Positions 31,742 through 49,712 of a stretch of DNA of 64,000 bases are shown piece after piece (position 1 is the stretch's first letter; the number at the start of each line of letters is the position of its first letter). The position numbers were made by a program, and so were the translations under genes. The notes beneath the pieces are model-generated. The model was given only the letters and a program-made list of their open reading frames with translations, ran no database searches and had not been told where the DNA came from. Source of the DNA: Bacteroidales bacterium. Lineage in GTDB: Bacteria; Bacteroidota; Bacteroidia; Bacteroidales; WCHB1-69. Location of the stretch: NCBI GenBank assembly GCA_024400635.1, contig JAKSMI010000002.1, forward strand, positions 120,305 to 184,304. Reading direction: 5' to 3'.

Positions 31742-31815
31742 GCTTCCTTAGCTCAGTCGGTTAGAGCATCTGACTGTTAATCAGAGGGTCCTAGGTTCAA
31801 GTCCTAGAGGGAGCG
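31742..31815 (+). tRNA. tRNA-Asn (anticodon GTT)
   Basis: Manual cloverleaf: acceptor GCTTCCT/AGGGAGC; D stem GCTC/GAGC; anticodon stem TCTGA/TCAGA with loop CTGTTAA; T arm CTAGG-TTCAAGT-CCTAG; discriminator G. CCA is not encoded. Confidence 0.93.
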
Positions 31816-31867
31816 CAAAGAAAAGCACCTATTCTCAATGAATTAGGTGCTTTTTTTGTTGCCTTCC
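31773..31867 (+). repeat. Direct repeat 1 (attL-like): tRNA-Asn anticodon loop to 3' end plus terminator
   Basis: It matches 47860-47955. The tRNA portion (ACTGTTAATCAGAGGGTCCTAGGTTCAAGTCCTAGAGGGAGCGCA) is identical, as is ATTCTCAATGAATTAGGTGCTTTTTTTGTTGCCTTCC. The copies differ only in the ~12 nt between these two blocks. Confidence 0.9.
31823..31856 (+). terminator. Rho-independent terminator of tRNA-Asn
   Basis: GCACCTA-ttctcaatgaat-TAGGTGC followed by TTTTTTT. A second copy lies at about 47912-47945 inside the downstream direct repeat. Confidence 0.7.
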
Positions 31868-31971
31868 GGATAGGGGAAAATGTGGCGATTTCAACAGGTT
31901 TTGGGTAAAAAATCTATAATAGTTCACTAATTTTCGGTGAGCTCAACTTGTTGGAAATCAAGATAACAGCA

Positions 31972-33180
31972 ATGGCAACAATAGGATATGAAATCAGCAA
32001 TTATGCAAAGGGAAACGGCTCCATTAGTGTTCGTCTCCGTTTGACACATAACAAGAAGAACAAGTATTTCAGCAGTGGTATCTTCGTCTCAAGAGACGAC
32101 CTGACAAAATGTGGAAAGATACGAAATAAGGAGATTGCTTCACTAATTAGTGAAATGGTTCTGGACTACACCAGACGGATAGCAGAATGTTCAATAGAAA
32201 TCAACCGATGTTCCGATGTAAATGAAGTGTATCGTATTATTACAAAAGAAGATAAACTAATTCACCGAGATATAGATTTCTTTGACTATGCACAAAAGTT
32301 TATGGAAAATAAAGAGAGTGAAAAGACTGCTTCTGGATATAGAACAATGCTATCTTCATTTCAAACATTTATTAAGAAGAAAACAATTGCTTTCAATGAT
32401 ATCACACCAACCGTATTACGTTCATACATAGATTATCTTGACCCAAAGCGGCGACGTTCGTCACAATATCTGACCCTAATAAAGTCAATCTTCAATTCTG
32501 CCATTAAAGAATATAATGACGAAGCAATCGTTATTAAGAACCCATTTTCAAAGATAGATATGCCCAAACCCCCTGTTCCTGAAAAACGTGGACTAACAGT
32601 TGAACAGATACGGGCAATTGCCAATCATAAATCTACGGGCAAACGAGAACAATTTGCCAAAGAAATGTTCCTTTTATCTTTTTGCCTTGTCGGAATAAAT
32701 GCAATTGACCTCTACGATTGTGACCAGATAGAAGGGGATAAAATAACCTACTATCGTCATAAGACCCGTGGACGGAGAGATGATAATGCTAAAATGGTTG
32801 TTGCTATACCTCCTATTGTGAAAAGTGTTGTTGAGAAGCACCGGGATAATACCAATAAAAAGGTTTTCAATCTGCATATCCGTTATGCTGAAAGCGGTAA
32901 TCTAAATGCAAATATCAATAAGGGATTGAAGGTAATTGGTAAAAAGTTGGGTATAGAGAACCTTCAAATGTATTGTGCAAGACATAGTTGGGCAACCATT
33001 GCTGCAAATGACTGTCGTATGGATATATATACAATTCATAAAGCACTGAACCATACCACCAGTAAATTGAAAATAACGGAAACTTATATTAGGGAAAATT
33101 GGGATTGGTTGGAAAGAGCGAATAATCAGGTGCTGGATTATGTCTTTGGTGAAGCAGATATCAATGATTTTCTGCTCTAA
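31972..33180 (+). CDS. Tyrosine recombinase / phage-type integrase (Bacteroidota type)
   Basis: C-terminal catalytic residues lie in ARHSWATIAAN...IHKALNHTT...TETYI (R, H-x-x-R-like, Y). It is adjacent to attL. I start at the ATG at 31972. Confidence 0.85.
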   Translation: MATIGYEISNYAKGNGSISVRLRLTHNKKNKYFSSGIFVSRDDLTKCGKIRNKEIASLISEMVLDYTRRIAECSIEINRCSDVNEVYRIITKEDKLIHRDIDFFDYAQKFMENKESEKTASGYRTMLSSFQTFIKKKTIAFNDITPTVLRSYIDYLDPKRRRSSQYLTLIKSIFNSAIKEYNDEAIVIKNPFSKIDMPKPPVPEKRGLTVEQIRAIANHKSTGKREQFAKEMFLLSFCLVGINAIDLYDCDQIEGDKITYYRHKTRGRRDDNAKMVVAIPPIVKSVVEKHRDNTNKKVFNLHIRYAESGNLNANINKGLKVIGKKLGIENLQMYCARHSWATIAANDCRMDIYTIHKALNHTTSKLKITETYIRENWDWLERANNQVLDYVFGEADINDFLL

Positions 33181-33325
33181 TGTATATCACATGGAAAGCA
33201 AACAGACAGATTCACATGATTCGTTATCATGGACGAAGTAGAGCATGTATTATTCGACAAAAAGCTTTCTCTGTATAATAAATATTGGACAGCGGACTGT
33301 GCCATGTTTTTTCACACCAATTGCT

Positions 33326-33333
33326 TATCTTTG
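33326..33333 (+). promoter_or_regulatory. Bacteroidota -7 promoter box (TAtcTTTG) upstream of the WYL regulator gene
   Basis: TATCTTTG lies 20 nt upstream of the ATG at 33353. Confidence 0.45.
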
Positions 33334-33352
33334 CCGCAAAAAAGAAATTGTC

Positions 33353-34282
33353 ATGAGCAAGAATTTGATTAACAGGTATATTTGGTTGGTAGACACCATT
33401 TACCAAGCTGGTTCTTCGGGAATTACACTCCGAGAAATTTCAGAAAAATGGGAAAGCAACTGGCGAATGTCTGGAAAGGAGGAGTATGCAAGACGCACCT
33501 TCATGCATCACAAAAAGGACATTTGGGACATCTTCGGCATTGAAATAGGATGTCACAAGCACACCAATTGCTACTATATTGTGGATAGCAGGGATATTTC
33601 CGACTCGTCGGGTTTTCGGCGGTGGATGTTCGAGACGTTAGCAGTGAATAACCACGTTAATGAGAGTGCCCAATTGCGCGACCGTATCTTATTGGAGAAC
33701 AACCCCTCTGGAGGTGAGTTCCTTTCCACCACCTTGGAAGCGATGCGCGACGGAAAGATGATCACATTTGATTATCGTCCGTTTTGGTTTGAGGCCGAAA
33801 ACTATTCCAGCTACTACCATGTGGAGCCTTATGCTCTGAAGGTGTTCAAACGCCGCTGGTATCTGTTGGGCAAATACGGCGACTCACCTTTGAAGATATA
33901 TGCACTAGACCGCTTTCTGAATATCGACATCGAATTCGAGGACTTCACAATGCCGCAAGGCTTCAATGCAAATGCCTACTTCTCCACCTGTTTTGGAATC
34001 ATCGTTGGTGATGAAGATCCGCAATTCATCAAACTAAAAGTGGCTTACTATCAGGCAAACTATCTCCGTTCATTGCCGCTTCACCACTCCCAGAAAGAGA
34101 TGGAGATTACCGATAACCATACCATCTTCAGCTATTATTTGCGTCCATCTTTTGACTTTGTGCAGGAGCTGCTTTCCTTGGGAGAAACTGTTGAGGTGCT
34201 TGAACCCGCTTCCTTGCGCTTGGAGATGGAGAGAATCGGGAAGGAGATTGCGAAGAATCATAAAAGGGAGCGACGGAAATAA
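33353..34282 (+). CDS. WYL-domain transcriptional regulator (wHTH + WYL)
   Basis: N-terminal wHTH-like region (INRYIWLVDTIYQAGSSGITLREISEKW). The central motif EPYALKVFKRRWYLLGKY is the hallmark WYL segment. I start at the ATG at 33353. Confidence 0.8.
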   Translation: MSKNLINRYIWLVDTIYQAGSSGITLREISEKWESNWRMSGKEEYARRTFMHHKKDIWDIFGIEIGCHKHTNCYYIVDSRDISDSSGFRRWMFETLAVNNHVNESAQLRDRILLENNPSGGEFLSTTLEAMRDGKMITFDYRPFWFEAENYSSYYHVEPYALKVFKRRWYLLGKYGDSPLKIYALDRFLNIDIEFEDFTMPQGFNANAYFSTCFGIIVGDEDPQFIKLKVAYYQANYLRSLPLHHSQKEMEITDNHTIFSYYLRPSFDFVQELLSLGETVEVLEPASLRLEMERIGKEIAKNHKRERRK

Positions 34283-34305
34283 CATCAGTTGCAAAAGGAA
34301 TCCTT

Positions 34306-34821
34306 TTACACTATCGGATCTGGACACACATTGCGCCGTTGGCACTTTTCGCACTCGCTACCACGCCACACTTTATCGAATTCCTCAATGACAGCGGTTA
34401 CGAGAGCGTGATCATCGGTGAGGACACCTGCTTCGAAATTGCGGCGGAGGGGCGACTTCATCCCCATTCCCGCGCCCGTGAGGTTCGCGCTGCCCACGTA
34501 GCAGACCGTCTGGTCGATGACGATGATTTTGAAATGTACCCGCGGACACATCACCCGTTCCAGCATCTTGGCCAGTCGTGGGTAGCGGTCGAAGTCGGCG
34601 CGGAAGTTCGGTCCTGGTTCCTTTGCGTGGATCAGCCGCACCTCCACGCCCCTTCCCAGCAGTTCCGCCAGCACCCCGAGAAACGGCTTCTCGATTTTAC
34701 CCTGCAACACGTATAGGTCTTTGATGTCAGCGGTACCAATCCACAACGAGTGCTTGGCCTTCATCGCAAGGTCAAGCACGGTGGTGCAGTGGGAGGAGTC
34801 GGAGATGAGGGTAGTGGGCAT
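34306..34821 (-). CDS. Phospholipase D-family (single-HKD, Nuc-like) nuclease
   Basis: HKD motif HFKIIVIDQTVCYVGSANLTG, and a C-terminal Cys pair (CEKCQRRNVC). The gene is visibly GC-richer than its surroundings. Confidence 0.8.
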   Translation of the reverse strand: MPTTLISDSSHCTTVLDLAMKAKHSLWIGTADIKDLYVLQGKIEKPFLGVLAELLGRGVEVRLIHAKEPGPNFRADFDRYPRLAKMLERVMCPRVHFKIIVIDQTVCYVGSANLTGAGMGMKSPLRRNFEAGVLTDDHALVTAVIEEFDKVWRGSECEKCQRRNVCPDPIV

Positions 34822-34865
34822 TATAAATCGATTATTATCAGTTGTTTAGTGAGCTATATTTCGCA

Positions 34866-34873
34866 CAAATATA
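34866..34873 (-). promoter_or_regulatory. Bacteroidota -7 promoter box (TAtaTTTG, minus strand) upstream of the PLD nuclease gene
   Basis: The plus-strand sequence CAAATATA is the reverse complement of TATATTTG. It lies 45 nt upstream of the ATG at 34821. Confidence 0.4.
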
Positions 34874-34951
34874 ATATTGAAAATTGTACGAAACAGAATT
34901 GGAAAATTTTTGGAACTGCATAAATTTTCGTATGAATTTTTATGATTGCCT

Positions 34952-35024
34952 GCAGACCTACGGTCTGCGTCAAATCCTCGTGCTGTTTCGTTGCTACCAA
35001 GCCCGGCAGACCAAACGGCCTGCC
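34952..35024 (-). other. GC-rich structured intergenic element (two strong hairpins), possible terminator or small RNA
   Basis: Hairpin 1 is GCAGACC-tac-GGTCTGC (34952-34968). Hairpin 2 is an 8-bp stem at 35005-35024 whose single non-Watson-Crick pair is A-C on the plus strand but G-U on the minus strand. Confidence 0.35.
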
Positions 35025-35083
35025 TCCTTTGCAGCGGTTGTCTGAACCATTGTTGGAGGTTTGAGTATATGTTAAAAGCTTTT

Positions 35084-36103
35084 TTATATTGTTTCAAGGC
35101 CAGCGATACCTGTTCTTAGCAACATTTCAGCAAACGTTTTGCCATTGATAAGACGGACATTGTTTTCTTCAGCCTTTCTCATGGCTTCGTCCGAAAAATC
35201 ATCACAAGAGGATATCACCCATAGGACAGAATGATATTCAGTATTTTGGTATTTTTCAGAATTCACAACTATTTGCTTAACTGCGTCATCAGAGGTAGTG
35301 TCTTTATGCCATTTAGCTTGAACCCGTATTGCAACTTTCAATTCTTCAAAATAAGCTACAGCATCAGTGTCCCCATCTTCAGTTCGACTTGAATTTTTAG
35401 CTGGAACTTCAACACGAGCACCCAAGTGTTCAAAATAACTTTTTACAAGCTCCTCGAATTTATTATCCCCTGGCATTTTTCTGATTTTTTCGAGAATTAT
35501 TCCACAAGTGTTTTCTTTGATTTCTGAGTACAGATTTAAAGGTTGTCCTGTTTCAGCACGATTGAGAGCGTCTTCAACATTAGAAGACAAAGATGTTATG
35601 TCTGAATTTATTTGCTGAATTTTCATACGTGAAAACAAAGGACCATCAGCATAAACTCTCGGTATCTTAGTCTTGATAGGTTTAACGTTCCAAAAGAAAC
35701 CTATATCAATTATTCTGTTTGTGTCTTTTTGATAGATATACCCTTCCCGGTATTCAACTTCATTTCCATTCCAATCCTTTGCTCCATTTAGGTCAAGTTT
35801 TTCACATGAATATGGTCGTTCGCCCACAATCTCGAAAAGGCTGAATTCATAAGGTGTTGGAACGAGCACAACATCCCCTTTTTTCATTTCTTTTAGAAAT
35901 CGGTACAAACACCATCTGTTGCGAGGATTTCCCCATGCTTCAAATTTCTCATTGAACTCAGTGTCAAAATTATCAATAAAAGATTCTTCCGAGAAATCAG
36001 ACCAACCAATAGAAAGGATGTTTTTTTCAAACAATAATGGGGTTGATAAAACGATTCCTATCTCTCCGCTTTTGATGCGATGTAACCAATAATTTTTACT
36101 CAT
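35084..36103 (-). CDS. Mrr-type restriction endonuclease with an N-terminal PUA/EVE-like domain (candidate modification-dependent, type IV-like)
   Basis: The C-terminal GDTDAVAYFEELKVAIRVQAKWH fits the Mrr-cat D...(E/Q)xK core. The N-terminal MSKNYWLHRI...NPRNRWCLYRFLKEMKKGDVVLV resembles EVE/PUA-like readers. The start is taken at the ATG at 36103; ATGs at 36139 and 36187 are also possible. Confidence 0.65.
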   Translation of the reverse strand: MSKNYWLHRIKSGEIGIVLSTPLLFEKNILSIGWSDFSEESFIDNFDTEFNEKFEAWGNPRNRWCLYRFLKEMKKGDVVLVPTPYEFSLFEIVGERPYSCEKLDLNGAKDWNGNEVEYREGYIYQKDTNRIIDIGFFWNVKPIKTKIPRVYADGPLFSRMKIQQINSDITSLSSNVEDALNRAETGQPLNLYSEIKENTCGIILEKIRKMPGDNKFEELVKSYFEHLGARVEVPAKNSSRTEDGDTDAVAYFEELKVAIRVQAKWHKDTTSDDAVKQIVVNSEKYQNTEYHSVLWVISSCDDFSDEAMRKAEENNVRLINGKTFAEMLLRTGIAGLETI

Positions 36104-36146
36104 AAATTTATTGTTTAATTTATTGCTTATTGTATGCATGTTTTTT

Positions 36147-36812
36147 TTACAAGAAAACTGAAATTTGGGAAAGTACTTCAAAAGCACCGCAATTATATTC
36201 TCTTATACTATCAATAGCAAGCTGCAACCCCAAAAGTTGTAGCTGACATTTTTCTCTAGTATTCTTGCTCATTTCCATAATTTCCTCTCTATCTGGCACA
36301 ACACCAGATAATGTGAGTTCGCTAAAAGCTTTAGTTGTGATTAAATCATCATCGTCTTTTGATAAAATACCGACAAGAATTGTTTCCATAACGCTAACAG
36401 CATTATTATCTTTATTGTTAAAGCCGATTGTTTTTAGCGCACTTCTTGCCACCTCTTTTAGAACGATTGAATATACATCGGATTCGGGTTGTTCGTATAC
36501 ACCGCCATCAACATATTCAATTTGTTCATCATCTTCTTTATAATCATTCAATCCAAATTGTATGCGTACTGAATATATGGCTTCATCTATTTTATCAAAC
36601 AAGTCTTCTATTTGTTCCTTAACAATCAGATTGTAATCTGGATTATTGTCAGAATAGTCAATAGACTTATTGATTTCATCCTTTAGTTGAGGCAAGTCAT
36701 CATATTCAATCTGGTCAATCTGTTCTTCCAGATAGTTAATATCAGCATCCTGCAGCTGTTTTAGACTCTCTAATCGATTTAAAATTGCTGTAAGCTTGTC
36801 AATGATTTCCAT
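36147..36812 (-). CDS. Highly acidic hypothetical protein
   Basis: The ORF is rich in D/E runs (DDLPQLKDE, YKEDDEQIEYVDGG, SKDDDDL). No domain was recognised. I start at the ATG at 36812 (MEIIDKL). Confidence 0.55.
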   Translation of the reverse strand: MEIIDKLTAILNRLESLKQLQDADINYLEEQIDQIEYDDLPQLKDEINKSIDYSDNNPDYNLIVKEQIEDLFDKIDEAIYSVRIQFGLNDYKEDDEQIEYVDGGVYEQPESDVYSIVLKEVARSALKTIGFNNKDNNAVSVMETILVGILSKDDDDLITTKAFSELTLSGVVPDREEIMEMSKNTREKCQLQLLGLQLAIDSIREYNCGAFEVLSQISVFL

Positions 36813-36886
36813 GTCGCTTTTAATTAACAAACACATGTTTTTCCACTCCGCAAAATTACAAAATTATCCCATTCACCATCATTGCC

Positions 36887-37093
36887 TCAAACAACAATTC
36901 CCTCCTCCTTTTCCACCTTTTCAATGCACTCCTCAATGTCAGCAATCAATTCTTTCAAAAACTCTATTTTTGCCGACTTGTCCGGGAAATTGTCAGGATT
37001 TGCTTCAAATTCACTCTCGATCAAGTCGCTGATTGTGAATTCACATCCTAAATCTTCTTCATCTGGGGCTACATAAAAATAATAATCGTTCAT
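36887..37093 (-). CDS. Very acidic 68-aa hypothetical protein
   Basis: Hand count: 21 D/E versus 5 K and no R in 68 residues. It is tightly packed in the minus-strand operon. Confidence 0.5.
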   Translation of the reverse strand: MNDYYFYVAPDEEDLGCEFTISDLIESEFEANPDNFPDKSAKIEFLKELIADIEECIEKVEKEEGIVV

Positions 37094-37099
37094 GTCTAT

Positions 37100-37612
37100 T
37101 CAATTTTTCTTTTGGTTTTTCTCGTTTGGAATGATTATTCGCTCAATATCATTTACAATTTGATTCCATCCTTGACTATTTTGTTCCTCAAAGGTGGTCA
37201 TGATGTCAATGAAGTTAAAAGAGACGATCGGCTGCTGTTTCAGCCACTTGATGGTTTTATATGATTCCGGCACGAAAACATTCGGTGCCAATTCGCAACT
37301 GTAACGATGCCCCCACAGACAAATCACAGACGTGGGAATGCGTGCAGCAAGATGATACTCTATTCTTCCCTTCAAATCTTCGTTTGTATCTTCGAATGGG
37401 TCCATTCAGGCCACAAAACAGCAGAGGGTCTTTTTTTCGTCAATGCTTGTCTCAATCTTGTCCCATCTTTCACTGGAGCAGCATTCGAACGCCTCGCTTT
37501 CTGCGCTTCTTGACATTATGTATTCCATTATCTCCACCGCTTTTGCTCCCAACGGGACAACGATGACTTTTTCAAAATGTGTGTTGGGGTTGTTAATAAT
37601 ATTCTTGATCAT
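37100..37612 (-). pseudogene. Hypothetical gene interrupted by an in-frame TGA that directly abuts an ATG (68-aa and 101-aa ORFs)
   Basis: ORFs 37406-37612 and 37100-37405 share one frame. They are separated only by TGA (37406-37408), which is followed directly by ATG (37403-37405). Both halves weakly resemble successive parts of the 186-aa protein at 39049-39609. Confidence 0.45.
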
Positions 37613-37730
37613 AACGTTTATATTGTTTTGGAACTAGTAGAATCAACCTCTGTCCGATTTTGATGCGGCAAAAACAGCGCATAGCTGTGCAAAAACGTAG
37701 CGCTGTAGGGTTGTCGCAATTCGGCACCCC

Positions 37731-38225
37731 TCACAATAACCGCATCGCAATCCTCGCACACGCCTCCGCGTCGGCGAGGGCGTGGTGGTGATGCTCCAGA
37801 TGATAGCCGCAGGCTGCCGCTACGGTGTGCAGTTGGTGGTCGGGGAGCTGTTGCCCGAAATGATGACGGGAGGCGCTGCAGGTGCAGTGAAATTCGTAAT
37901 CGGGATAGTCCATCTGATAGACTCGGAACACCGCCCGCAGACAGCTTTCGTCAAACGGGCTGTTGTGTGCCACTAAAGGCAATCTCTCAATCAGTGGCTC
38001 AATTTGTTGCCACACTCCTGGGAACACTGGCGCGTTGTCTGTGTCCTCGTGTGTGAGACCATGAACCTCCTGACAGAACCAGACATAGTAGTCGGGCTCA
38101 GGCTTGATGAGACTGTAAAACGTGTTGGCGATGAGACCGTTGCGCACAATCACCACGCCCACGCTGCATACGCTGCTGCGCTGTCCGTTGGCGGTTTCAA
38201 AATCAATGGCGGCGAAATCTTGCAT
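37731..38225 (-). CDS. DEDDh 3'-5' exonuclease (DnaQ/epsilon-like)
   Basis: ExoI AIDFETAN, ExoII HNSPFDESCL and ExoIII HHALADAEACARI motifs. I start at the ATG at 38225. The gene is visibly GC-rich. Confidence 0.85.
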   Translation of the reverse strand: MQDFAAIDFETANGQRSSVCSVGVVIVRNGLIANTFYSLIKPEPDYYVWFCQEVHGLTHEDTDNAPVFPGVWQQIEPLIERLPLVAHNSPFDESCLRAVFRVYQMDYPDYEFHCTCSASRHHFGQQLPDHQLHTVAAACGYHLEHHHHALADAEACARIAMRLL

Positions 38226-38272
38226 GATTGAACATTCTTTGGGTGTATTATAATGATTGCTTTCTTCCACGC

Positions 38273-38974
38273 TCAATCCAAACTTATCAGCTGATCCATA
38301 AACGCTTCTTGGCAGATATGATAGGTGGTCATACGCATGATGTCAGGAATGCTGAAGCACTGACTGTTACAAAGTTCACAGAAAGAGTAGCAAAACGAGA
38401 TTTCATAGGGCAGCGCGAGGTCTATTTCACACGACTCCTTAAGGGGCAAGCCGTTGTGGTAGGAGTCGTAAAAGTCTCCGCTGCAATAATATAAGCTGTC
38501 GGTCATTTCTATGCTATGTATTGTGTCGAGAATCTCTATGATGTCGTTCCATTGCGAACCGTAGAAACCGTCGTCTTCCCTGATGACAAGTTGCGGATTC
38601 TGATTGTCATGGAAGTAAGTCAAACTGGTGTTTAACTTGTAATCTGGGTGGATGGTTATCAGCTGTTGGTGTCTTTGTTTATGGACTTCCAAAACCTTTG
38701 CTTCCATCTGTACAAGCCGCCTGTTGGTCATTTCCAAATCCCGGATGTTGGCCTCTGAATAGCTCAATTCAAACATGCGATTCAGCAGCGCACAACGTAT
38801 CTCGGCTTTTGTCAATATTCTGTCCTGATTGCTGATGATGAACACCTCCTTGTCATTCTCATCGTAAGAGAGCCTCATAATCTCACTTTCACATTGTCTT
38901 ACATACCGCCGCAGATAGTCTGTGTCAGTTTGCTCTTGTATCTTAATGATTTCTAGATTGTTTTGATTAGTCAT
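38273..38974 (-). CDS. Hypothetical protein (233 aa)
   Basis: A long ORF in the operon with no domain recognised. Confidence 0.5.
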   Translation of the reverse strand: MTNQNNLEIIKIQEQTDTDYLRRYVRQCESEIMRLSYDENDKEVFIISNQDRILTKAEIRCALLNRMFELSYSEANIRDLEMTNRRLVQMEAKVLEVHKQRHQQLITIHPDYKLNTSLTYFHDNQNPQLVIREDDGFYGSQWNDIIEILDTIHSIEMTDSLYYCSGDFYDSYHNGLPLKESCEIDLALPYEISFCYSFCELCNSQCFSIPDIMRMTTYHICQEAFMDQLISLD

Positions 38975-39013
38975 ATTAATAATTTGAATTACACTGGCAA
39001 AAATGGAATGTAT

Positions 39014-39032
39014 GTGTGCTAAAATGTGGCAC
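39014..39032. promoter_or_regulatory. Palindromic operator-like site TGTGCtA-N5-TGGCACA
   Basis: Inverted repeat in the 74-nt gap upstream of the gene starting at 38974. It has the same half-sites and spacing as the site at 39652-39670. Confidence 0.4.
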
Positions 39033-39048
39033 AGTAAACTGCTGGCTA

Positions 39049-39609
39049 TTAGCTATTAGCCGTTGGTTCTCTATTCTTTGGTTTCCTCCCCACAATCATC
39101 TCCGCAACTCTTAGTTCCATGCTTGCCAAAAAGTCCACCAATGGCATATTGCCATAAGCTTTAGATAGTTCTTCCTGCATGTCAATCACGTGGATGTCAT
39201 CCACGCCCAAGAAACGGCGGTCGAGGGGACGGTCGTACAGTTTGGAGGCGAATCGTGGCGGCAAGAGGTAGATGAGATGTCGCTTGATGTTGGCGTGATG
39301 CGCTTTGCACCATAAGAGGTTAACCCCTATGGCTGCAATTTGCAGCTCCGTGTTCGAGCAACCGTGATTTACATTCGGATTCGGGTGAGGCTTGGGTACC
39401 ATGTTCGAGGGCGAGTCCCACACGAGGAGCCACACCTCCACGGACGGGTCGTATAGTCCATCCTCCGCACAATAGAGGTTCTCCCTGACAAAATTTTCAC
39501 TTTCCATCCATTCGTATGCGTATGAGGAGGGCAGGTGCTGCATAATACCCTCTTTGCACTGCACGGCGTTGTAGCCCACAGGAATAATGATGTGTTTCGT
39601 TCTATCCAT
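39049..39609 (-). CDS. Hypothetical protein (186 aa), first gene of the minus-strand operon
   Basis: An ORF with no domain recognised. It shows weak similarity to the split gene at 37100-37612 (HIIIPVGYNAVQCKEGIM vs KVIVVPLGAKAVEIMEYIM; LLWCKAHH vs ICLWGHRY). Confidence 0.5.
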   Translation of the reverse strand: MDRTKHIIIPVGYNAVQCKEGIMQHLPSSYAYEWMESENFVRENLYCAEDGLYDPSVEVWLLVWDSPSNMVPKPHPNPNVNHGCSNTELQIAAIGVNLLWCKAHHANIKRHLIYLLPPRFASKLYDRPLDRRFLGVDDIHVIDMQEELSKAYGNMPLVDFLASMELRVAEMIVGRKPKNREPTANS

Positions 39610-39651
39610 TTTCTTTAATGTTTAAATACGCTGACAAAAATAGAACATCGC

Positions 39652-39670
39652 TGTGCCATATTTTGGCACA
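39652..39670. promoter_or_regulatory. Perfect palindromic operator-like site TGTGCCA-N5-TGGCACA in the divergent promoter region
   Basis: A perfect 7-bp inverted repeat in the 100-nt gap between the divergent operons (39609 minus, 39710 plus). It sits 10 nt upstream of the TAttTTTG box at 39680. Confidence 0.45.
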
Positions 39671-39679
39671 CAATCATTC

Positions 39680-39687
39680 TATTTTTG
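39680..39687 (+). promoter_or_regulatory. Bacteroidota -7 promoter box (TAttTTTG) upstream of the AAA+ ATPase operon
   Basis: TATTTTTG lies 23 nt upstream of the ATG at 39710. Confidence 0.45.
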
Positions 39688-39709
39688 CAACGTTCAAAAT
39701 TATAATGCT

Positions 39710-41440
39710 ATGAAAAAAGAAAACATTTTGCAGACATTGAGTTTTCTGGCGCTGAAAATGGAAAACTCCGGAACTGCCTTGTTAGAGGCAATTGCGCCTG
39801 ATTCTATTGCACATTTAGACTACACATTTACACGGCAGAACGAATCCACCATTCATAAAGAGTTTAGCAAAACAGAGATATGTGAGATTGTTAAAAAGTT
39901 GGAGGATGTCGCCAAATTCCTCGGTATCTCAACCATTCAGGCTGTTATTATGATGGTTGCCTTCTGCAATAAATTCCAAGACAATTATATAGATTGGAAC
40001 GATGTCCACAAATTTTTCAATGTAAAGAGTATGGTGCTGCTTCCTTTGAAAAAAGAATTTGACCGTCTGGTATCTGGTAAATTCCTAAAACGAGCTGGTA
40101 AAAGACATTCTGAATATTATGATATTGAGCAAAAAGTGGTGGACTCCGTAATGAATGAACATCCATTTGACCCTTGTATATTGAAAGAAGCACGTCTCGA
40201 TCGATATAAATTTGTCAACGAAATTTCCGATTTGATCGAGCTACGTAGTGATGACGAGATATCCACCTCCGATCTTTTTGAACGTTCATATGAGATGGAA
40301 CAACAGAACAATACTCTTACTTTTGTTCAGAATGTCAAGAAATTGAATCTTGAGACTAAAGACAGAGTCTTATTCTATGAGATTTGCGACGATTTTCTTG
40401 CTCATGGTGAAACGGGAATCAATTGTACGCTGAAGGACATGTATAGTAATCCTAGCACTCGTTTTCGAATTGCAAAGGAGTTGATGGACGAAAAGCAGAT
40501 TCTGCAAAAGTTAGATTTAGTGATCCTCCTTCGTGACACAATTTTCTCTGATAGTAATTTGACCCTGACCGAAAAAGGGAAACAACTCTTTTTAGAGGAA
40601 GATTTCGAGCTTTTTGCCAAATCCAAAAATCGAGACCATAAAACAATATACCCCGAAGACATTCAAGAAAAGTCCTTGTTTTATGATGAAGAACTCTCGC
40701 GACAGCTAAATCTGCTGAAAGAAAATCTCCAAGAAGAGCGTTTCACAGAGCTGCAAAAACGATTGGAAGAACAGTCGCTACCTAAGGGGGTTGCTGCCAT
40801 CTTCCATGGGCAACCTGGCACAGGGAAAACCGAAACTGCGATGCAAATTGCCAAAGCTACAGGTCGTGCAGTGTGTCACGTGGACATTGCAAGTTCCAAA
40901 AGTTGCTGGTTTGGTGAAAGCGAAAAACTTATTAAGCGTATATTTACCGATTATGCTGGACTGTGCAAAAAATCCCCTCTTAAGCCGATTCTACTTTTCA
41001 ACGAAGCAGACGCTCTCTTTTCCAAACGCAAGGATAGCATTTCATCAAACGTGGCGCAAACAGAGAATGCCATCCAAAACATTATCCTTGAAGAAATGGA
41101 AAAACTGGATGGAATACTCATAGCTACCACCAATCTCATAGATAACTTGGACAGAGCTTTTGAACGACGTTTTCTATTCAAAATCCATTTCAACAATCCC
41201 ACGGTGGAAGCAAAACAATCTATCTGGAAGAGCAAACTCTCTTGGTTGTCTGAAAACGAAAGTCGCATACTCGCAGAACGCTACAATTTCTCAGGCGGCG
41301 AAATCGACAACATCGTCCGCAAGGTTATTATGGATGAGGTACTCAACGGAATACACCCTGACATGCAATTCGTTGAAGAACTATGTCGCTATGAAAAGAT
41401 TGGCAACAAGGAGACGAGCTTTATTGGGTTTAGAAAATGA
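39710..41440 (+). CDS. AAA+ ATPase (classical AAA module at the C-terminus, ~350-aa unknown N-terminal region)
   Basis: Walker A GQPGTGKT, Walker B ILLFNEADALF, sensor-1 ATTN and an arginine-finger region ERRF. I start at the ATG at 39710. Confidence 0.8.
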   Translation: MKKENILQTLSFLALKMENSGTALLEAIAPDSIAHLDYTFTRQNESTIHKEFSKTEICEIVKKLEDVAKFLGISTIQAVIMMVAFCNKFQDNYIDWNDVHKFFNVKSMVLLPLKKEFDRLVSGKFLKRAGKRHSEYYDIEQKVVDSVMNEHPFDPCILKEARLDRYKFVNEISDLIELRSDDEISTSDLFERSYEMEQQNNTLTFVQNVKKLNLETKDRVLFYEICDDFLAHGETGINCTLKDMYSNPSTRFRIAKELMDEKQILQKLDLVILLRDTIFSDSNLTLTEKGKQLFLEEDFELFAKSKNRDHKTIYPEDIQEKSLFYDEELSRQLNLLKENLQEERFTELQKRLEEQSLPKGVAAIFHGQPGTGKTETAMQIAKATGRAVCHVDIASSKSCWFGESEKLIKRIFTDYAGLCKKSPLKPILLFNEADALFSKRKDSISSNVAQTENAIQNIILEEMEKLDGILIATTNLIDNLDRAFERRFLFKIHFNNPTVEAKQSIWKSKLSWLSENESRILAERYNFSGGEIDNIVRKVIMDEVLNGIHPDMQFVEELCRYEKIGNKETSFIGFRK

Positions 41441-41517
41441 GTGTCTAATAATTCGCATAGGTCGCACCATTTTCTATCTAATACGTGCGCTGTTTTACCA
41501 TATTAAGACATGCCGTT

Positions 41518-42147
41518 ATGTTAAAATTTTTACGGGAAACACTTTCTATCGGGGACTTTGTGGAGGTAGAAACTTCCACAGGATTAGTGCGTGGCTCCAT
41601 CTTGGAAATACCACCTGATTGTTTGGTGATGCTAACTGATGGCGAACTGCACGAATATTCAGAGGAGCAGTTGTTGAGTATCAAATACTTTTCCGATGAT
41701 CACGATGCCTATCGGGATTGTTATATCCAAAAGTTTATACCAGAAGAAAAGAGTGAGAGATATTTTTGGGCAGAAAACCACAATGGATCGTTGTGTTGCA
41801 CGAATTTCGACAACATCATCACAATTTTTATGGGCTGGAATATGCGTTTCCAACGCGGTCATCTTGACTTGCCCGACTTGATTGATGTGGAGGACGAATA
41901 CTATAATATAGAAGTCTTGAGCAATGATTGTGATGATTGTTTTTCAGACTATATCACTTCCGTCAAGTTACCGAAACATTTGAAGAGTATTGAGCTACTA
42001 TTCATAGGAAGAATCTTCCTCCAGAAAATATATGTTCCCGATACTTTAGTTTATTCGGGAGGGTACAAAATAGGCGGTTGCACCACATGTCAAGTTTTCG
42101 ACATGAATGGAAAACTTTTGGATTGGGAGTTTGAAGAGGATTGGTAA
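41518..42147 (+). CDS. Hypothetical protein (209 aa)
   Basis: An ORF following the ATPase gene with no domain recognised. The start is taken at the ATG at 41518 (MLKFLRETL). Confidence 0.5.
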   Translation: MLKFLRETLSIGDFVEVETSTGLVRGSILEIPPDCLVMLTDGELHEYSEEQLLSIKYFSDDHDAYRDCYIQKFIPEEKSERYFWAENHNGSLCCTNFDNIITIFMGWNMRFQRGHLDLPDLIDVEDEYYNIEVLSNDCDDCFSDYITSVKLPKHLKSIELLFIGRIFLQKIYVPDTLVYSGGYKIGGCTTCQVFDMNGKLLDWEFEEDW

Positions 42148-42177
42148 ACAGTGCCGCACTTTTGCACACTCCCGATA

Positions 42178-42185
42178 TATTTTTG
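42178..42185 (+). promoter_or_regulatory. Bacteroidota -7 promoter box (TAttTTTG) upstream of leader copy A
   Basis: TATTTTTG lies 19 nt upstream of the conserved leader element. Confidence 0.4.
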
Positions 42186-42203
42186 CCGCAGGTTCCATAC
42201 CAT

Positions 42204-42273
42204 ACGCCCTCGCCGAAAAGCGTTCAATAGAGTAGGCATTTTTAAAAGTTGTGCCCGACACGTACTAGGGAGA
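42204..42273 (+). repeat. Conserved leader element, copy A (upstream of the 79-aa ORF)
   Basis: ACGCCC..GCCGAAAAGCGTTCAATAGAGTAGGCA - variable spacer - AGTTGtGCCCGACACGTAcTAGGGA. It ends 0-5 nt before an ATG. Its counterpart lies at 43647-43720. Confidence 0.8.
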
Positions 42274-42513
42274 ATGATTATGCCGCAAATGATAGTCTAT
42301 AATGGGGAACTGATACGTATTAGCCCCAAAAACAAGAGAAAAATAGAGGTGTCTACTAATCATGGTGGATCATGGATGACCCGCTGTGTTGGATCTGCCA
42401 GCACTGGAGAATTCCTTGATTTGGTAAACAATGGATCTGAGATAATTGCCACCACCGAAAAAGGGCTGTTCGTCTCTTCCAACAACGGAGGATCTTGGAT
42501 AAGAAGAAGTTAA
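42274..42513 (+). CDS. Small protein with two degenerate BNR/Asp-box-like motifs (STNHGGSW, SSNNGGSW)
   Basis: A 79-aa ORF starting right after leader copy A. The S-x-N-x-G-G-S-W motif occurs twice. Confidence 0.5.
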   Translation: MIMPQMIVYNGELIRISPKNKRKIEVSTNHGGSWMTRCVGSASTGEFLDLVNNGSEIIATTEKGLFVSSNNGGSWIRRS

Positions 42514-42539
42514 CAATTATCCCTAAAAAATATACCACT

Positions 42540-42818
42540 ATGAGAAATTTAAAAAACAACATGCTGGCACTGATACTTGTGATTTGCAATTTTGCTGTCT
42601 ATGCAGAAACTGCTTCGGAAGCTGCCAACCCTTCAGAATCCAACATTTTCATTGAGATCTTGGTTTACGCTTTGATTTTCGGAATCCCATTGTTGGTGAT
42701 TATCCGAAAAATTAGGCGAAAAATCAGGAACTTCAAGGAGGATGTAAAAAGTGGCGGTTTCGGAGAAGCAACCATGAGCCGTTTGGAAGACCATTTCGAC
42801 AGAAAGAACAAGAAATAG
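42540..42818 (+). CDS. Small secreted/membrane protein (signal peptide + one TM + basic tail)
   Basis: MRNLKNNMLALILVICNFAVYA signal, a TM helix (IFIEILVYALIFGIPLLVII), and then RKIRRKIRNFK. Confidence 0.5.
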   Translation: MRNLKNNMLALILVICNFAVYAETASEAANPSESNIFIEILVYALIFGIPLLVIIRKIRRKIRNFKEDVKSGGFGEATMSRLEDHFDRKNKK

Positions 42819-42838
42819 TAGACTAAACGCTTCTCGTC

Positions 42839-43678: not shown

Positions 43679-43720
43679 GCAAAAAATTCTAGCAGTTGCG
43701 CCCGACACGTATTAGGGAAA
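43647..43720 (+). repeat. Conserved leader element, copy B (overlaps the channel gene 3' end, upstream of the 73-aa ORF)
   Basis: Same blocks as copy A: a 27-nt identical core GCCGAAAAGCGTTCAATAGAGTAGGCA, then AGTTGcGCCCGACACGTAtTAGGGA. Confidence 0.8.
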
Positions 43721-43725
43721 CGAAA

Positions 43726-43947: not shown

Positions 43948-43971
43948 CCATTTGTTAAACACAAATACTAC

Positions 43972-44003
43972 ATGACGGGCAGGATTTTACTCCTGCCCGT
44001 CAT
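43972..44003. terminator. Perfect 13-bp hairpin between convergent genes (probable terminator, no clear U-tract)
   Basis: ATGACGGGCAGGA-ttttac-TCCTGCCCGTCAT. Confidence 0.5.
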
Positions 44004-44093
44004 ATTGAAAAACCTTTCTTGGTATACTTTTCTATAACATTTACACCAAAGAAGCCATATACCAATCTTATTGATTATCAACAATTCACAAAC

Positions 44094-46365: not shown

Positions 46366-47628
46366 CTACATCACCTCTTTGTAGAGTTGTTCTTTTATTG
46401 CTTTGCTCTGCATCATTGCACTTGTCCGTAACGAGTTAATGTATCCTTGCGTGGTTGTGGGGTTGGCGTGTCCCATATCCATTTGTATATCCATTAGAGA
46501 CCTCCCATTCTCACACTGAAAACTCGCATAAGTATGCCTTGCCTGCGCCATAGTGGTGTGCGGTAATCCGAGTTCTTCGGTGACCATACGGAGTCCCATA
46601 TTGGCACGGTAGTTAATATCGTTGATTCTGTCGTTAATTTGTCTCTCTGTATGAGTGTTAGCAAGAAAGGGGAAGATGTAGTCGTTAGGGCACGACTTAT
46701 TCACGCTCCCATATTTCGTGATGAGTTGCATCCCCAAGTCTGTAGGATAGATCGAAACGGGTATCGCGTGGCGTTTTGTTTTGTGTCTAACAAACTCGAT
46801 TTTCCACCCCACTTCCGTCAGACTAATGTTTTTGTTCTTGAGGCGCAAGATGTCACTCAAGTAATGTCCGTTGAGGTCAAATGATAGAACAAAAAAGTCT
46901 CTGCCAAATTGCGCCTTCTCATCAGAACTTCTGTATGCAAGTATTTGCTGGAGGCTATGAACCGTCAAGCCGTAATTAACCTTCCTTGTTGAAGTGAGTG
47001 AAAACTTCTTAAACGGGCGTTTGTCCTCAATGTATCCTTTCTCTACCGCGTAATTATAGACCGCCCTTATGCTCCTAAAATACATATTGACGGTGTTTTG
47101 CGAAATATCAGGTCTGTAGCGGTGCATAAAGGTGTCCAGCCGCGATAGCATTTCTCCCGTGATTTCATCCAATGTGATTCTGTCCTTGAACTTCACTATC
47201 CAATTCAAAGCAGTGTGATATGCTGATATGGTTCTGTCCGATAGTGGTCGAGTTCTATTGGCGTCTGACAAGTACTCTGCAAAAATAGTTCGCATATCGT
47301 AGGCACTGGAAGTTTCTCCGCGAATCATCTTTTTATAGTCTCGGTAGAATGATTCAAAACTAAACGAGTCTCCGAGTTTTCCTATTATCTCAATAGCGGC
47401 GTTGTAGTCAGCGCGAATCTCCTCATAAGCCTCCTTGTACTTCTTGAGGTGCTTGTTCTGGAACTCCGCCGCCGTTAATTGTATTGTGCTATTGGTTGCG
47501 AAATAGCGGGGGATCCGATTATATGTGATCCGCAACTCAAGTGTGCGTTTGTCACTAATTGGTTCGGACATTGTTTTACTCCTCCTGTGATTTCGCACTA
47601 TTTCAACGGCTGGTTTTTTCATACTCAA
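46366..47628 (-). CDS. Tyrosine recombinase / integrase (second, distinct from the one at 31972)
   Basis: The catalytic region is ARHTYASFQCENGRSLMDIQMDMGHANPTTTQGYI. It is adjacent to attR and transcribed into the island. Confidence 0.85.
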   Translation of the reverse strand: MSMKKPAVEIVRNHRRSKTMSEPISDKRTLELRITYNRIPRYFATNSTIQLTAAEFQNKHLKKYKEAYEEIRADYNAAIEIIGKLGDSFSFESFYRDYKKMIRGETSSAYDMRTIFAEYLSDANRTRPLSDRTISAYHTALNWIVKFKDRITLDEITGEMLSRLDTFMHRYRPDISQNTVNMYFRSIRAVYNYAVEKGYIEDKRPFKKFSLTSTRKVNYGLTVHSLQQILAYRSSDEKAQFGRDFFVLSFDLNGHYLSDILRLKNKNISLTEVGWKIEFVRHKTKRHAIPVSIYPTDLGMQLITKYGSVNKSCPNDYIFPFLANTHTERQINDRINDINYRANMGLRMVTEELGLPHTTMAQARHTYASFQCENGRSLMDIQMDMGHANPTTTQGYINSLRTSAMMQSKAIKEQLYKEVM

Positions 47629-47859: not shown

Positions 47860-47955
47860 ACTGTTAATCAGAGGGTCCTAGGTTCAAGTCCTAGAGGGAG
47901 CGCAACCACAAAGCACCAATTCTCAATGAATTAGGTGCTTTTTTTGTTGCCTTCC
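47860..47955 (+). repeat. Direct repeat 2 (attR-like): displaced 3' half of tRNA-Asn plus terminator
   Basis: See repeat 1. It lacks the 5' half of the tRNA, so it is not a functional tRNA gene. Confidence 0.9.
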
Positions 47956-49653: not shown

Positions 49654-49654
49654 T

Positions 49655-49682: not shown

Positions 49683-49712
49683 GTTTTACTACAACAGAAG
49701 GAGGGCTGACGT

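Follow-up and report, generated by a model that had tools for sequence, protein, structure and literature searches.

A mobile, modular candidate defence island with a type IV restriction hotspot and a putative WYL regulator in an uncultured rumen Bacteroidales

In the E. coli hsd-mrr-mcrBC ICR a fixed slot holds restriction systems that differ by strain, and accessory nucleases are found within BREX or DISARM loci. In the pEFER island of E. fergusonii, inverted repeats whose arms stand 5 bp apart, R-BOX1 and R-BOX2, are the binding sites of the regulator BrxR, which represses a defence island holding a type IV enzyme (Picton et al. 2022, PMC9122601). We analyzed a region lying within a 64-kb window (the whole stretch of DNA considered) from an uncultured rumen Bacteroidales and compared it with other loci, designated by L numbers, among them about ten distinct related ones from rumen Bacteroidales. 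On the sequence evidence, and with a probability of roughly 0.6, the region forms the middle of a mobile, modular anti-phage island, whose units share one promoter/operator module and which carries an exchangeable nuclease slot. The locus as a whole would combine modular defence genes, a hotspot for type IV restriction and putative control by a WYL protein (Table 1).

Table 1. Features of the island and their positions in the window
Feature	Position	Strand	Remarks
tRNA-Asn	31742-31816		overlapped by attL repeat
attL, 95-nt direct repeat	31773..31867	+	tRNA-Asn 3' half and downstream hairpin; island left end
Tyrosine integrase 1	31948..33180	+	Phage_int_SAM_5 E 1.6e-13, Arm-DNA-bind_5; left island end
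Module 1	33298..33339	+	PWM 44.6 bits; 14 nt upstream of WYL start codon
WYL-WCX transcription regulator, 309 aa	33353..34282	+	orthologue-supported start; WYL E 1.7e-9, WCX E 2.8e-10
PLD-family nuclease, single HKD	34306..34821	-	PLDc_2 E 1e-16; right edge of variable slot
Mrr-family (type IV-like) endonuclease, 339 aa	35084..36103	-	slot-A variable cargo
ac229, acidic, 221 aa	36147..36812	-	pI 4.1, 21% D+E; dN/dS 0.23
ac68, very acidic, 68 aa	36887..37093	-	pI 4.05, 31% D+E; dN/dS 0.09
Split ORF, 170 codons	37100..37612	-	one in-frame TGA at 37406-37408
Module 2, partly degenerate	37663..37704	-	PWM 36.9 bits; start of slot-A cassette
DEDDh 3'-5' exonuclease, 164 aa	37731..38225	-	RNase_T (Pfam) E 2.9e-17; scaffold gene
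u233, 233 aa	38273..38974	-	helical N-terminal half; C-terminal half with DxxYGS, YSIPDxxR motifs
Module 3	38992..39033	-	PWM 44.3 bits; upstream of u233, parts u186 from u233-exonuclease unit
u186, alpha/beta protein, 186 aa	39049..39609	-	33 clusters
Modules 4 and 5	39629..39693	.	PWM 48.7 and 48.6 bits; predicted divergent promoters of u186 and AAA+ gene
AAA+ ATPase, 576 aa	39710..41440	+	AAA E 7e-23; N-terminal ~340 aa of no assigned family; scaffold gene
u220, acidic, 209 aa	41518..42147	+	partner gene of AAA+ ATPase; dN/dS 0.20
Module 6	42150..42191	+	PWM 40.0 bits; then DUF805b RNA motif and small genes
DUF805b RNA motif (Rfam RF02914)	42203-42238		downstream of module 6, with small genes
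Tyrosine integrase 2	46366..47628	-	Phage_integrase E 1.2e-11, Phage_int_SAM_5; right island end
attR, second copy of 95-nt repeat	47860..47955	+	direct-repeat comparison

All the ORFs listed in the initial annotation were found on the minus strand in the order proposed, and the gene set is under purifying selection, with dN/dS values of 0.08-0.23; the genes are real. The DEDDh exonuclease was confirmed by its RNase_T match and by the DxE, D and H-x4-D motifs readable in the translation, and PADLOC returned matches to DEDDh (E 2e-25) and PDC-S48 (E 1.4e-28). The last gene likewise proved to encode an Mrr nuclease, with an Mrr_cat match (Pfam, E 6.7e-14) over residues 242-356 of a 367-aa ORF and a PADLOC match to PDC-S02 (E 2.4e-17); its start was placed so as to give 339 aa, the length of the 92%-identical orthologue from L024. 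The PUA/EVE-like domain attributed to this protein was not recovered, since no EVE or PUA Pfam match was detected at E<=0.1. Its N-terminal domain of about 230 aa is uncharacterised, and the 92%-identical orthologue showed only a weak precomputed match to DUF8426, a domain that a McrB of L021 also carries N-terminally. The acidic character of ac68 and ac229 was borne out. None of u186, u233, ac68 and ac229 matched a Pfam, PADLOC, PHROG or PDB family, and no scaffold unknown matched a validated defence family.

The palindromic region reported to precede the first gene was also found, with arms at 39635-39658 and 39664-39687 and a core, TGTGCCA-N5-TGGCACA, at 39652-39670. It belongs to a 42-nt promoter/operator module, TGTGCCA-N5-TGGCACA-N9-TAnnTTTGC, for which a PWM scan of the window returned exactly six matches of 37-49 bits (best shuffled score, 4), all within the island and each just 5' of a gene start. 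Palindrome matches with at most 2 mismatches numbered 53 in 309 kb of island loci vs 0.88 +/- 1.0 in shuffles, and the -7 box stood at a constant distance from the palindrome in 42 distinct module instances; the module is island-specific. Modules 4 and 5 consist of a single perfect palindrome, retained exactly in 11 loci, between two outward-facing -7 boxes, and module 3 is kept at the equivalent place in L001, L005, L015, L016, L017 and L019. When 77 metagenome loci were retrieved by the DNA pattern alone, the module occurred 124 times in 525 kb, and the genes found behind it elsewhere (Fic/RhuM, AbiEii-like ATPase, HD, Metallophos, HAD_SAK_2) are typical conflict-system genes.

Because modules 2 and 3 lie inside the region, its description as one operon was not confirmed. 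Three units are predicted, namely u186, u233 with the exonuclease, and the split ORF with ac68, ac229 and Mrr, each headed by a module with a -7 box of Bacteroidetes type (TAnnTTTG). The alternative of several unrelated transcription units agrees with this prediction in the number of units but not in their being unrelated, as they share one operator. The spacing also departs from the 0-75 nt originally given: with the orthologue-supported starts of the exonuclease, ac229 and Mrr, the gaps measure 74, 47, 118, 6, 74 and 43 nt, the 118 nt following the exonuclease exceeding that range.

The WYL-WCX protein is a candidate repressor of the module-headed units. The window and L001, L012, L024, L027, L043, L096 and L077 all have a module ahead of the WYL start, at a distance of a few to about 50 nt, orthologues with 86-98% identity terminate the island in L001 and L012, and WYL was the commonest known family among the pattern-selected loci (14/77). 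The occurrence of the module before the AAA+ and WYL/WCX genes as well as before the units points to a putative BrxR-like repression. Pfam did not find an N-terminal HTH in the WYL protein, and a PDB sequence search returned only weak PafBC and DriD matches, BrxR being absent. In the scaffold loci L005-10 and L017 modules are present and no WYL gene was found within 10 kb, so that there the regulator would act in trans, or another protein would bind the palindrome.

Across the related loci the AAA+ gene with u220, u186, u233, the exonuclease and PLD were kept, and the stretch between exonuclease and PLD varied, making it a replacement hotspot whose nuclease, presumed to act on modified DNA, differs between related genomes. 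This slot (slot A) contains Mrr in the window and L023-25, McrBC in L005, L007-10 and L015, GmrSD in L006, L011-14, L016 and L017, and PDDEXK_4 in L001; to our knowledge, PDDEXK_4 is not established as a type IV enzyme. The u186-u233-exonuclease linkage was present in every locus retrieved through u233, while independent occurrence in other genomes, which the initial annotation had envisaged, was seen for ac229 and Mrr, replaced by McrBC, GmrSD or PDDEXK_4. As the scaffold loci all fall in a single narrow clade (GTDB: five species representatives; u233 identity at least 56%), the conserved linkage may partly reflect shared ancestry. In the comparison with L012, identity reaches 94-96% in the island arms and 78% in u233 and the exonuclease, and the slot contents are not related, a mosaic pattern which argues for replacement by recombination, as in hotspots and ICRs. 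Homology by blastn to L005, L017 and L004 stops at 37666, coinciding with module 2, and further breakpoints fall at module 3 and at 68-nt repeated leaders around an ion-channel cassette. The component families are recombined otherwise in L004, L020-28 and pattern-selected loci, and the seven genes do not form a fixed system. Of the readings first offered (composite restriction, anti-restriction or accretion of independent genes), accretion in an ordered form fits best, as a conserved scaffold carrying an exchangeable restriction cassette. Anti-restriction found no support: no library gave a match, the acidic genes lie in restriction cassettes of islands in the chromosome, and u186 and u233 are missing from IMG/VR viral contigs. 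The AAA+-u220 pair and the WYL gene, belonging to scaffold and island, fall outside the region initially annotated.

Within the slot, ac68 is found in most scaffold loci 5' of the nuclease genes, and copies with 80-92% identity (L001, L005, L007-10, L015-17) accompany PDDEXK_4, McrBC or GmrSD. Relatives of ac229 form 16 clusters of 219-229 aa; the gene adjoins Mrr in L023-25 and McrBC in L020-22, lies near PDDEXK_4 in L026-28, and stands beside other nucleases at 47-50% identity. PLD is 84-92% identical across all scaffold loci, scores 52.7 vs a cut-off of 133 with the DrmC NCBIfam model, and has a predicted promoter of its own with a TAtaTTTG -7 box and no palindrome.

As for the scaffold proteins, the AAA+ ATPase resembles IetA/IteA in the AAA domain only (76.5 bits vs a cut-off of 510), and u220, downstream of it in all scaffold loci at 68-97% identity, gave no match in family searches. 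The u186 alignment shows invariant H104, H105, H111, H140 and D143; its AF2 model (pLDDT 83, pTM 0.81) has FtsZ as best PDB fold matches (E ~1e-3, TM 0.5), a relation without support at sequence level. The split ORF, indeed interrupted by a TGA, probably represents a distant u186 paralogue that has decayed, a kinship proposed initially and weakly supported: only 34 N-terminal residues align by BLASTP (41% identity) and no orthologue occurs in any fetched locus, while hhalign against the u186 profile, with the two same-frame pieces joined and the TGA replaced by W, gave a probability of 51% (E 1.6e-4, 106 columns), the inserted W aligning with invariant W64 of the family. For u233 there are 67 close clusters, and a search of 1.84 billion proteins gave 114 representatives at E<=1e-3; in L004, L020-22 and L026-27 a u233-like domain forms a fusion with a DnaB_C ATPase, and such a domain adjoins the exonuclease down to 32% identity, there as the DnaB_C fusion. 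The exonuclease is frequently doubled, with second copies in L001, L004, L016 and L019.

In the window the island is integrated at tRNA-Asn and bounded by 95-nt att repeats and two integrases; among the direct repeats they make up families D3 and D4, with identities of 100% and 98% to 47860-47955. The AAA-u220/u186/u233-exonuclease/PLD unit also occurs in three further chromosomal settings that lack integrases, and in L001 and L005-10 its neighbours are housekeeping genes, no integrase lying within 10 kb.

Three other explanations were weighed. The scaffold might be a single defence machine in which AAA-u220, u186, u233-exonuclease and PLD work with an interchangeable type IV nuclease as sensor or effector; about ten distinct loci, in four chromosomal contexts, keep its gene order with identities of 68-97%, one operator is common to all units but PLD, the nuclease always sits between exonuclease and PLD, and ac68 accompanies differing nuclease families. 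We consider this unlikely, as its parts are found combined and ordered differently elsewhere: L023-25 carry the exonuclease, WYL, ac229 and Mrr without AAA or u233, L020-22 and L026-28 pair a u186-like gene with a 107-aa gene and have the u233-DnaB_C fusion elsewhere in the island, and in the 77 pattern-selected loci AAA was counted 11 times, the exonuclease 8, PLD 6, and u186 and u233 twice each. Moreover, the exonuclease is duplicated inside islands, KAP NTPase or PDDEXK_4 cassettes are inserted between u186 and u233, and no methyltransferase or other self-marking component is present.

Still less probable is the backbone of an integrative element or satellite, with u233 (initiator-like) and the DnaQ-like exonuclease serving replication, WYL as switch and the nucleases as passengers. 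The att repeats and integrases and the joining of u233-like domains to DnaB_C speak for it, as do distant relatives, which in L109 neighbour FtsK/SpoIIIE and a DnaB_C gene that is not fused and in L112 lie close to primase genes (D5_N/PriCT). In PHROG, moreover, the exonuclease matches 'DNA polymerase exonuclease subunit' best (E 5.7e-38). However, besides the integrase-free settings of L001 and L005-10, the scaffold loci contain no polymerase, primase, origin-like iterons, packaging or transfer genes, IMG/VR viral contigs yielded neither u186 nor u233, the window u233 has no ATPase domain, and the presence of two or three exonucleases in one island fits replication genes poorly. That ac68 and ac229 are DNA mimics like ArdA or Ocr, shielding the island in a new host, would suit their composition and their presence on an integrated element, but appears very improbable: they match no Pfam, PHROG or PADLOC family, hence not the ArdA family in Pfam, and they lie within restriction-enzyme cassettes, co-oriented with the nucleases and behind one promoter module with a nuclease gene, integrase-free islands included.

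If the modular island is the correct reading, a WYL/WCX dimer would bind the palindromes and repress the units until, by likeness to BrxR and CapW, an infection-derived ligand freed it; the Mrr enzyme would next cut modified invader DNA, with the DEDDh exonuclease and the PLD nuclease possibly acting as separate or auxiliary DNA-degrading modules. As a working guess, u186, u233, ac68 and ac229 could be sensor, adaptor or modulator subunits rather than enzymes of a single pathway, and the repeated modules and leaders may supply short homologies for cassette swapping.

Compared with known systems, the locus resembles the BrxR island of pEFER (BREX with BrxU/GmrSD; PMC9122601) in encoding a WYL-WCX regulator, in the inverted repeat with 5-bp spacer upstream of the regulator and further copies before defence operons, and in the presence of a type IV restriction enzyme. 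It differs in that the palindrome is part of a fixed 42-nt promoter module, six per island, that the regulator gene does not head an operon but stands at the far island end, convergent with PLD, and that BREX is absent; the window WYL is only weakly similar to solved WYL proteins and would be a putative palindrome binder. The Mrr protein shares with Mrr type IV enzymes a C-terminal Mrr_cat PD-(D/E)xK domain with the D...QxK signature, a separate N-terminal domain, the absence of a cognate methyltransferase and a defence-island setting, whereas no EVE, PUA or winged-helix match was returned for its N-terminal domain and its gene follows two acidic genes of no known family. The exonuclease domain matches both PADLOC PDC-S48 and CRISPR-associated DEDDh exonucleases; unlike PDC-S48, it stands alone, as a 164-aa domain with u233 as its partner, covering only about 165 aa of the 411-512-position models, and relatives of u233 gave no match to these models. 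Finally, as in E. coli hotspots (PMC10121019) and the Listeria ICR (PMC10059834), a fixed slot with conserved flanks receives strain-specific restriction systems; the present locus differs in that its flanks are conflict-type genes (DEDDh exonuclease, PLD nuclease) rather than housekeeping genes, its entire frame moves among chromosomal sites and its breakpoints coincide with repeated regulatory modules.

The reading frames of the minus-strand stretch 35084-39609, as read in the sequence, follow the order reported in the initial annotation, and the table lists them together with the other features of the island, with gene starts being those backed by orthologues. Pairwise comparison with orthologues returned dN/dS values of 0.08-0.23 for u186, u233, the exonuclease, ac68, ac229, the Mrr protein and u220, thus indicating that these are real genes. 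The intergenic gaps, described as at most 75 nt, include one of 118 nt. The split frame had been regarded as a paralogue of u186; a resemblance was indeed recovered (a 34-residue BLASTP match, hhalign probability 51%), leaving the paralogy tentative. The palindrome reported upstream of u186 (TGTGCCA-N5-TGGCACA) is present at 39652-39670, and further copies exist elsewhere in the island.

The locus lies within a 16-kb island bearing one tyrosine integrase at either end and bounded by direct repeats (attL and attR), the left one at a tRNA-Asn gene; two integrase genes occur, yet only two att copies were found. Between the integrases, the order is a WYL/WCX regulator gene, the single-HKD PLD-family nuclease gene (PLD), the genes under study, a divergent AAA+ ATPase gene with the 209-aa u220, small genes with DUF805b RNA motifs upstream, an ion-channel gene and a Schlafen/AlbA_2 gene. 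Housekeeping genes lie to the left of the tRNA gene and a type I restriction-modification locus to the right of attR, the latter being interrupted by Fic/Bro-N, tandem YhcG/DUF1016 and Schlafen/AlbA_2 genes. In the related locus L012, a 12.75-kb cargo unit corresponding to 33189-45939 is placed between RmuC and methyltransferase/resolvase genes and is devoid of the integrases seen here. The unit was found in four chromosomal contexts, three of them without an integrase within 10 kb.

Coordinates of the island features and of extra exonuclease copies in related loci
Feature	Position	Strand	Details
tRNA-Asn gene	31742-31816		left boundary of the island
Direct repeat, two copies	31773-31867; 47860-47955		95 nt; island boundaries
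Tyrosine integrases	31948-33180; 46366-47628		one per island end, both reading inward
Module	33298-33339		upstream of WYL gene
Mrr_cat nuclease	35084-36103	minus	339 aa
ac229	36147-36812	minus	221 aa, pI 4.1
ac68	36887-37093	minus	pI 4.05
Split ORF	37100-37612	minus	170 codons, single in-frame TGA
Module	37663-37704		upstream of split ORF opening slot A
RNase_T/DEDDh exonuclease	37731-38225	minus	164 aa
u233	38273-38974	minus	233 aa
Module	38992-39033		upstream of u233
u186	39049-39609	minus	186 aa
Modules, paired	39629-39693		u186 and AAA gene; one perfect palindrome, two outward-facing -7 boxes
Module	42150-42191		upstream of small-gene block
DUF805b RNA motif (RF02914), two copies	42203-42238; 43646-43681	plus	32.0 and 37.4 bits; gathering score 35.6
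Ion-channel cassette	42204-43718		79-aa gene, 107-aa membrane protein, Ion_trans (42839-43678)
68-nt repeats	42204-42271; 43647-43718		both sides of the cassette
Small gene behind first DUF805b copy	about 42279-42513		79-aa ORF
Small gene behind second DUF805b copy	43726-47		DUF6140-like
Tandem 11-nt unit	44083-44159		about 6 copies
Type I R-M locus	48103-62131		right of attR; HsdM 48103-49653, HsdS 53447-54640, HsdR 59009-62131
YhcG/DUF1016 PDDEXK nucleases	50591-52821		two in tandem, within R-M locus
Second Schlafen/AlbA_2	55175-56845		within R-M locus
Extra exonuclease copies	L001 6542-7036; L004 4538-5032 and 6969-7463; L016 4083-4577; L019 2876-3376		coordinates of the related loci

Gene maps and tblastn searches of related loci revealed a conserved frame, [u220][AAA] <- -> [u186] (slot B) [u233][exonuclease] (slot A) [PLD], followed in some loci by the WYL gene. 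The frame genes were 68-97% identical to those of the window, while the content of slot A changed from locus to locus: ac68, ac229 and Mrr here, ac68 with a 247-aa protein and PDDEXK_4 in L001, McrBC with differing leader genes in L005, L007-L010 and L015, and GmrSD variants in L006, L011-L014, L016 and L017. Nothing occupies slot B in the window; in other loci it is filled by DUF6140, a KAP NTPase or a PDDEXK_4 nuclease. As to the conserved linkage of the genes, u186, u233 and the exonuclease were therefore kept together, whereas the acidic proteins and Mrr behave as cargo. In uncultured Bacteroidales, and there only in metagenomes and MAGs, were u186 (33 clusters), u233 (67) and ac229 (16) found; the five GTDB species representatives were without exception Bacteroidales/Bacteroidetes MAGs and came, where a source was given, from the rumen. 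The finding is a real locus and not a fixed seven-gene system.

Further rearrangements were observed among these islands. In L005-L010, L016 and L017, a PLD fragment of 77-96 aa is succeeded by an ATPase gene (AAA_14/DUF4143) and then by PLD in intact form (e.g. L005 16119-18254); the ATPase gene seems to have entered by an insertion that duplicated part of PLD. Some single islands have a second or third copy of the 164-aa DEDDh exonuclease gene, 63-82% identical to that of the window; these copies sit at cassette boundaries, often with a promoter module after them.

This 42-nt promoter/operator module consists of the palindrome followed by TAnnTTTG, the Bacteroidetes -7 box according to the consensus of Bacteroides promoters. 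With two mismatches allowed, the 309 kb of related loci contain 53 palindromes, where 0.88 would be expected, and the -7 box lay exactly 9 nt after the palindrome in 42 distinct instances. A weight matrix of the module returned six matches in the 64-kb window, scoring 37-49 bits where the best shuffled sequence reached 4; all lie within the island and each just upstream of a gene start. Upstream of PLD a -7 box is present and the palindrome absent. Because of this placement, three co-regulated units plus PLD are predicted in place of the single operon initially proposed. The palindrome was also considered as a sigma-54 -24/-12 promoter and discarded by inspection, as it reads TGCCAC instead of TGGCAC, its spacing is one off and the sequence that follows, always equally far away, is a canonical Bacteroidetes -7 box. 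A sigma-70 and terminator scan, uninformative for this organism, gave 16 promoter-like sites against 12.8 expected, and two operator-like matches in IMG/VR were judged not to exceed chance for a pattern of such length.

The DNA pattern alone retrieved 77 metagenome loci, among which WYL was the commonest recognisable family (14), followed by AAA (11), exonuclease (8) and PLD (6). Other genes behind the module encode Fic/RhuM, an AbiEii-like ATPase, HD, Metallophos and HAD_SAK_2 proteins, which are typical of conflict systems; a HAD_SAK_2 gene stands behind the module in the separate metagenome locus L065. The gene most common directly behind a perfect module belongs to a 306-353-aa family without Pfam match (19 of 92 downstream ORFs, in L032, L038, L048 and 16 other metagenome loci). 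Amid the same recurrent small families, islands L020-L028 contain genes for RtcB, ADP-ribosylglycohydrolase, YgjP-like and Y1_Tnp-Fic proteins; together with the HAD_SAK_2 gene of L065, this hints that RNA-repair and ADP-ribosylation conflict modules may be under the same regulation.

The WYL/WCX protein is the only regulator in the island (WYL domain E 1.7e-9, WCX domain E 2.8e-10); its residues 1-120 matched no Pfam HTH, and among PDB sequences the protein resembled only PafBC and DriD, weakly. Between the module and the WYL start codon downstream of it there are a few to about 50 nt, both in the window and in seven other loci; in some frame loci a WYL gene is not present close by. The pEFER BREX/GmrSD island is repressed by the WYL protein BrxR, which binds there at two places to inverted repeats of 11 bp separated by a 5-bp spacer (PMC9122601). 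The present island shares the arrangement of an inverted repeat with a spacer of about 5 bp before the regulator gene and the defence units, and by this close analogy the WYL protein may well bind the palindromes.

The Mrr protein aligned with PF04471 (Mrr_cat; E 6.7e-14, positions 7-115 of 115) and its D...QAK motif is legible in the translation; an orthologue matched DUF8426 weakly. The modified-base reader proposed for this protein was not recovered by sequence, as Pfam returned no EVE, PUA or SRA domain at E<=0.1 and a PDB sequence search no relative, only spurious PPR matches. The exonuclease matched PF00929 (RNase_T; E 2.9e-17, positions 2-163 of 164) and displays legible Exo I-III motifs including H-x4-D (DFE, HNSPFD, HHALAD). 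It fell below the NCBIfam cut-offs for a DNA polymerase III epsilon equivalog (PRK06195, the best, 142.9 against 373; dnaQ_proteo 31.2 against 222.7). PLD is not a DISARM DrmC (DrmC_I 52.7 bits, cut-off 133), the island having no DrmA, DrmB or methyltransferase, and AAA-u220 is not IetAS: the IteA match (76.5 bits, cut-off 510) is limited to the AAA domain, and u220, the partner of the AAA+ ATPase, showed no protease or other Pfam match.

Neither PADLOC nor PHROG contained a match to u186, u233, ac68 or ac229. The AF2 model of u186 (pLDDT 83, pTM 0.81) has an alpha/beta fold, and its top 25 Foldseek matches in the PDB were all FtsZ, albeit weak (E about 1e-3, TM 0.5). An identity as FtsZ/tubulin was rejected: the alignment lacks a GGGTGTG-type motif and nucleotide-binding motifs, and comparison with FtsZ of B. 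subtilis by hhalign returned a probability of 0.3%. The u186 profile had no match in the PDB, and its fold none among viral structures at E<=0.001. Related islands repeatedly contain u186 paralogues of shorter length (168-181 aa), behind which a gene of 107 aa usually comes next. For u233 the AF2 model was unusable (pLDDT 45); a profile search collected 114 representatives at E<=1e-3, in which R60, D135, Y138, S140 and D211 are invariant, and found no Pfam, PADLOC or PDB family. A u233-like domain (32% identity) forms the C-terminal half of 450-aa DnaB_C-ATPase fusions, which again lie one or two genes from an exonuclease copy (L004, L020-L022, L026, L027). Of the more distant relatives, some adjoin a DnaB_C gene that is separate, some follow a WYL gene and some lie close to primase genes. 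Among the functional links within the finding, the u233-exonuclease pairing is thus the best supported. Neither u186 nor u233 was found in IMG/VR viral contigs, a scan for which the u233 alignment is too divergent to yield search patterns. As for the acidic proteins, ac68 was found with nucleases of three different families, while ac229 accompanies Mrr at 75% identity and McrBC or a nearby PDDEXK_4 at 47-50%.

Comparison with L012 showed island arms 94-96% identical, u233 and the exonuclease 78% identical and an unrelated slot, so that the island is a recombination mosaic. Homology between loci breaks at the module opening slot A (37666), around the module preceding u233 and at the two copies of the DUF805b motif with its leader beside the ion-channel cassette. 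Behind each DUF805b copy, the island's other repeated element besides the module, come a conserved leader (GTTGYGCCCGACACG...AGGGA) and then a small gene; the same leader lies upstream of ac68 in L001, L015 and L016. The cassette is flanked by 68-nt direct repeats and is precisely missing in L005, L006, L017 and L019, a pattern suggesting that recombination between the repeats added or removed it. Judging from this handful of breakpoints, the junctions at which recombination takes place are probably the repeated regulatory elements and the genes of the conserved frame. The 68-nt repeats are not attC-like cassette sites, corresponding to the Rfam motif plus the leader before small genes, nor is the island an integron-like array, as its repeated element lies 5' of genes with a -7 box and its integrases at the ends beside tRNA att repeats. 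Between the DUF6140-like gene, for whose family a literature search found no paper, and the Schlafen/AlbA_2 3' end, the 11-nt unit AAAGTTCTCTT is repeated in tandem.

Taken together, the reading that fits the locus best is a portion of a modular and mobile defence island of rumen Bacteroidales, putatively regulated by WYL and containing a type IV restriction hotspot. A single integrated system ranks lower, and so does a mobile-element replication backbone. An anti-restriction role also ranks below the modular island; ac68 and ac229, considered as DNA mimics of the ArdA or Ocr kind, matched no known anti-restriction family in Pfam or PHROG. We regard it as unlikely that the scaffold (AAA-u220, FtsZ-fold-like u186, u233-DEDDh exonuclease and PLD) is a new multi-component immune system into which interchangeable type IV nucleases are plugged, the 42-nt WYL-operator/promoter module doubling as cassette-exchange junction. 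If true, gut and rumen Bacteroidales would have, for their defence genes alone, an equivalent of integron cassettes in which each cassette brings its own promoter.

This phylum dominates gut and rumen communities and, to our knowledge, the regulation of its defence genes is almost unstudied. The 19-bp palindrome and the WYL protein offer a sequence-defined, directly testable candidate regulon of Bacteroidales anti-phage genes, and the module can be used to find defence genes in the clade, since the DNA pattern retrieved conflict-system genes and several families without description. The u233 superfamily, with at least 114 representatives, is linked to the exonuclease and to DnaB_C ATPases, and the natural swap of Mrr, McrBC and GmrSD in one frame could reveal any cooperation between type IV restriction and the nucleases encoded next to it. 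The locus resembles BrxR-type regulated islands and immigration-control hotspots, to which it adds a candidate regulon and four uncharacterised families (u186, u233, ac68 and ac229) with a defined genomic setting.
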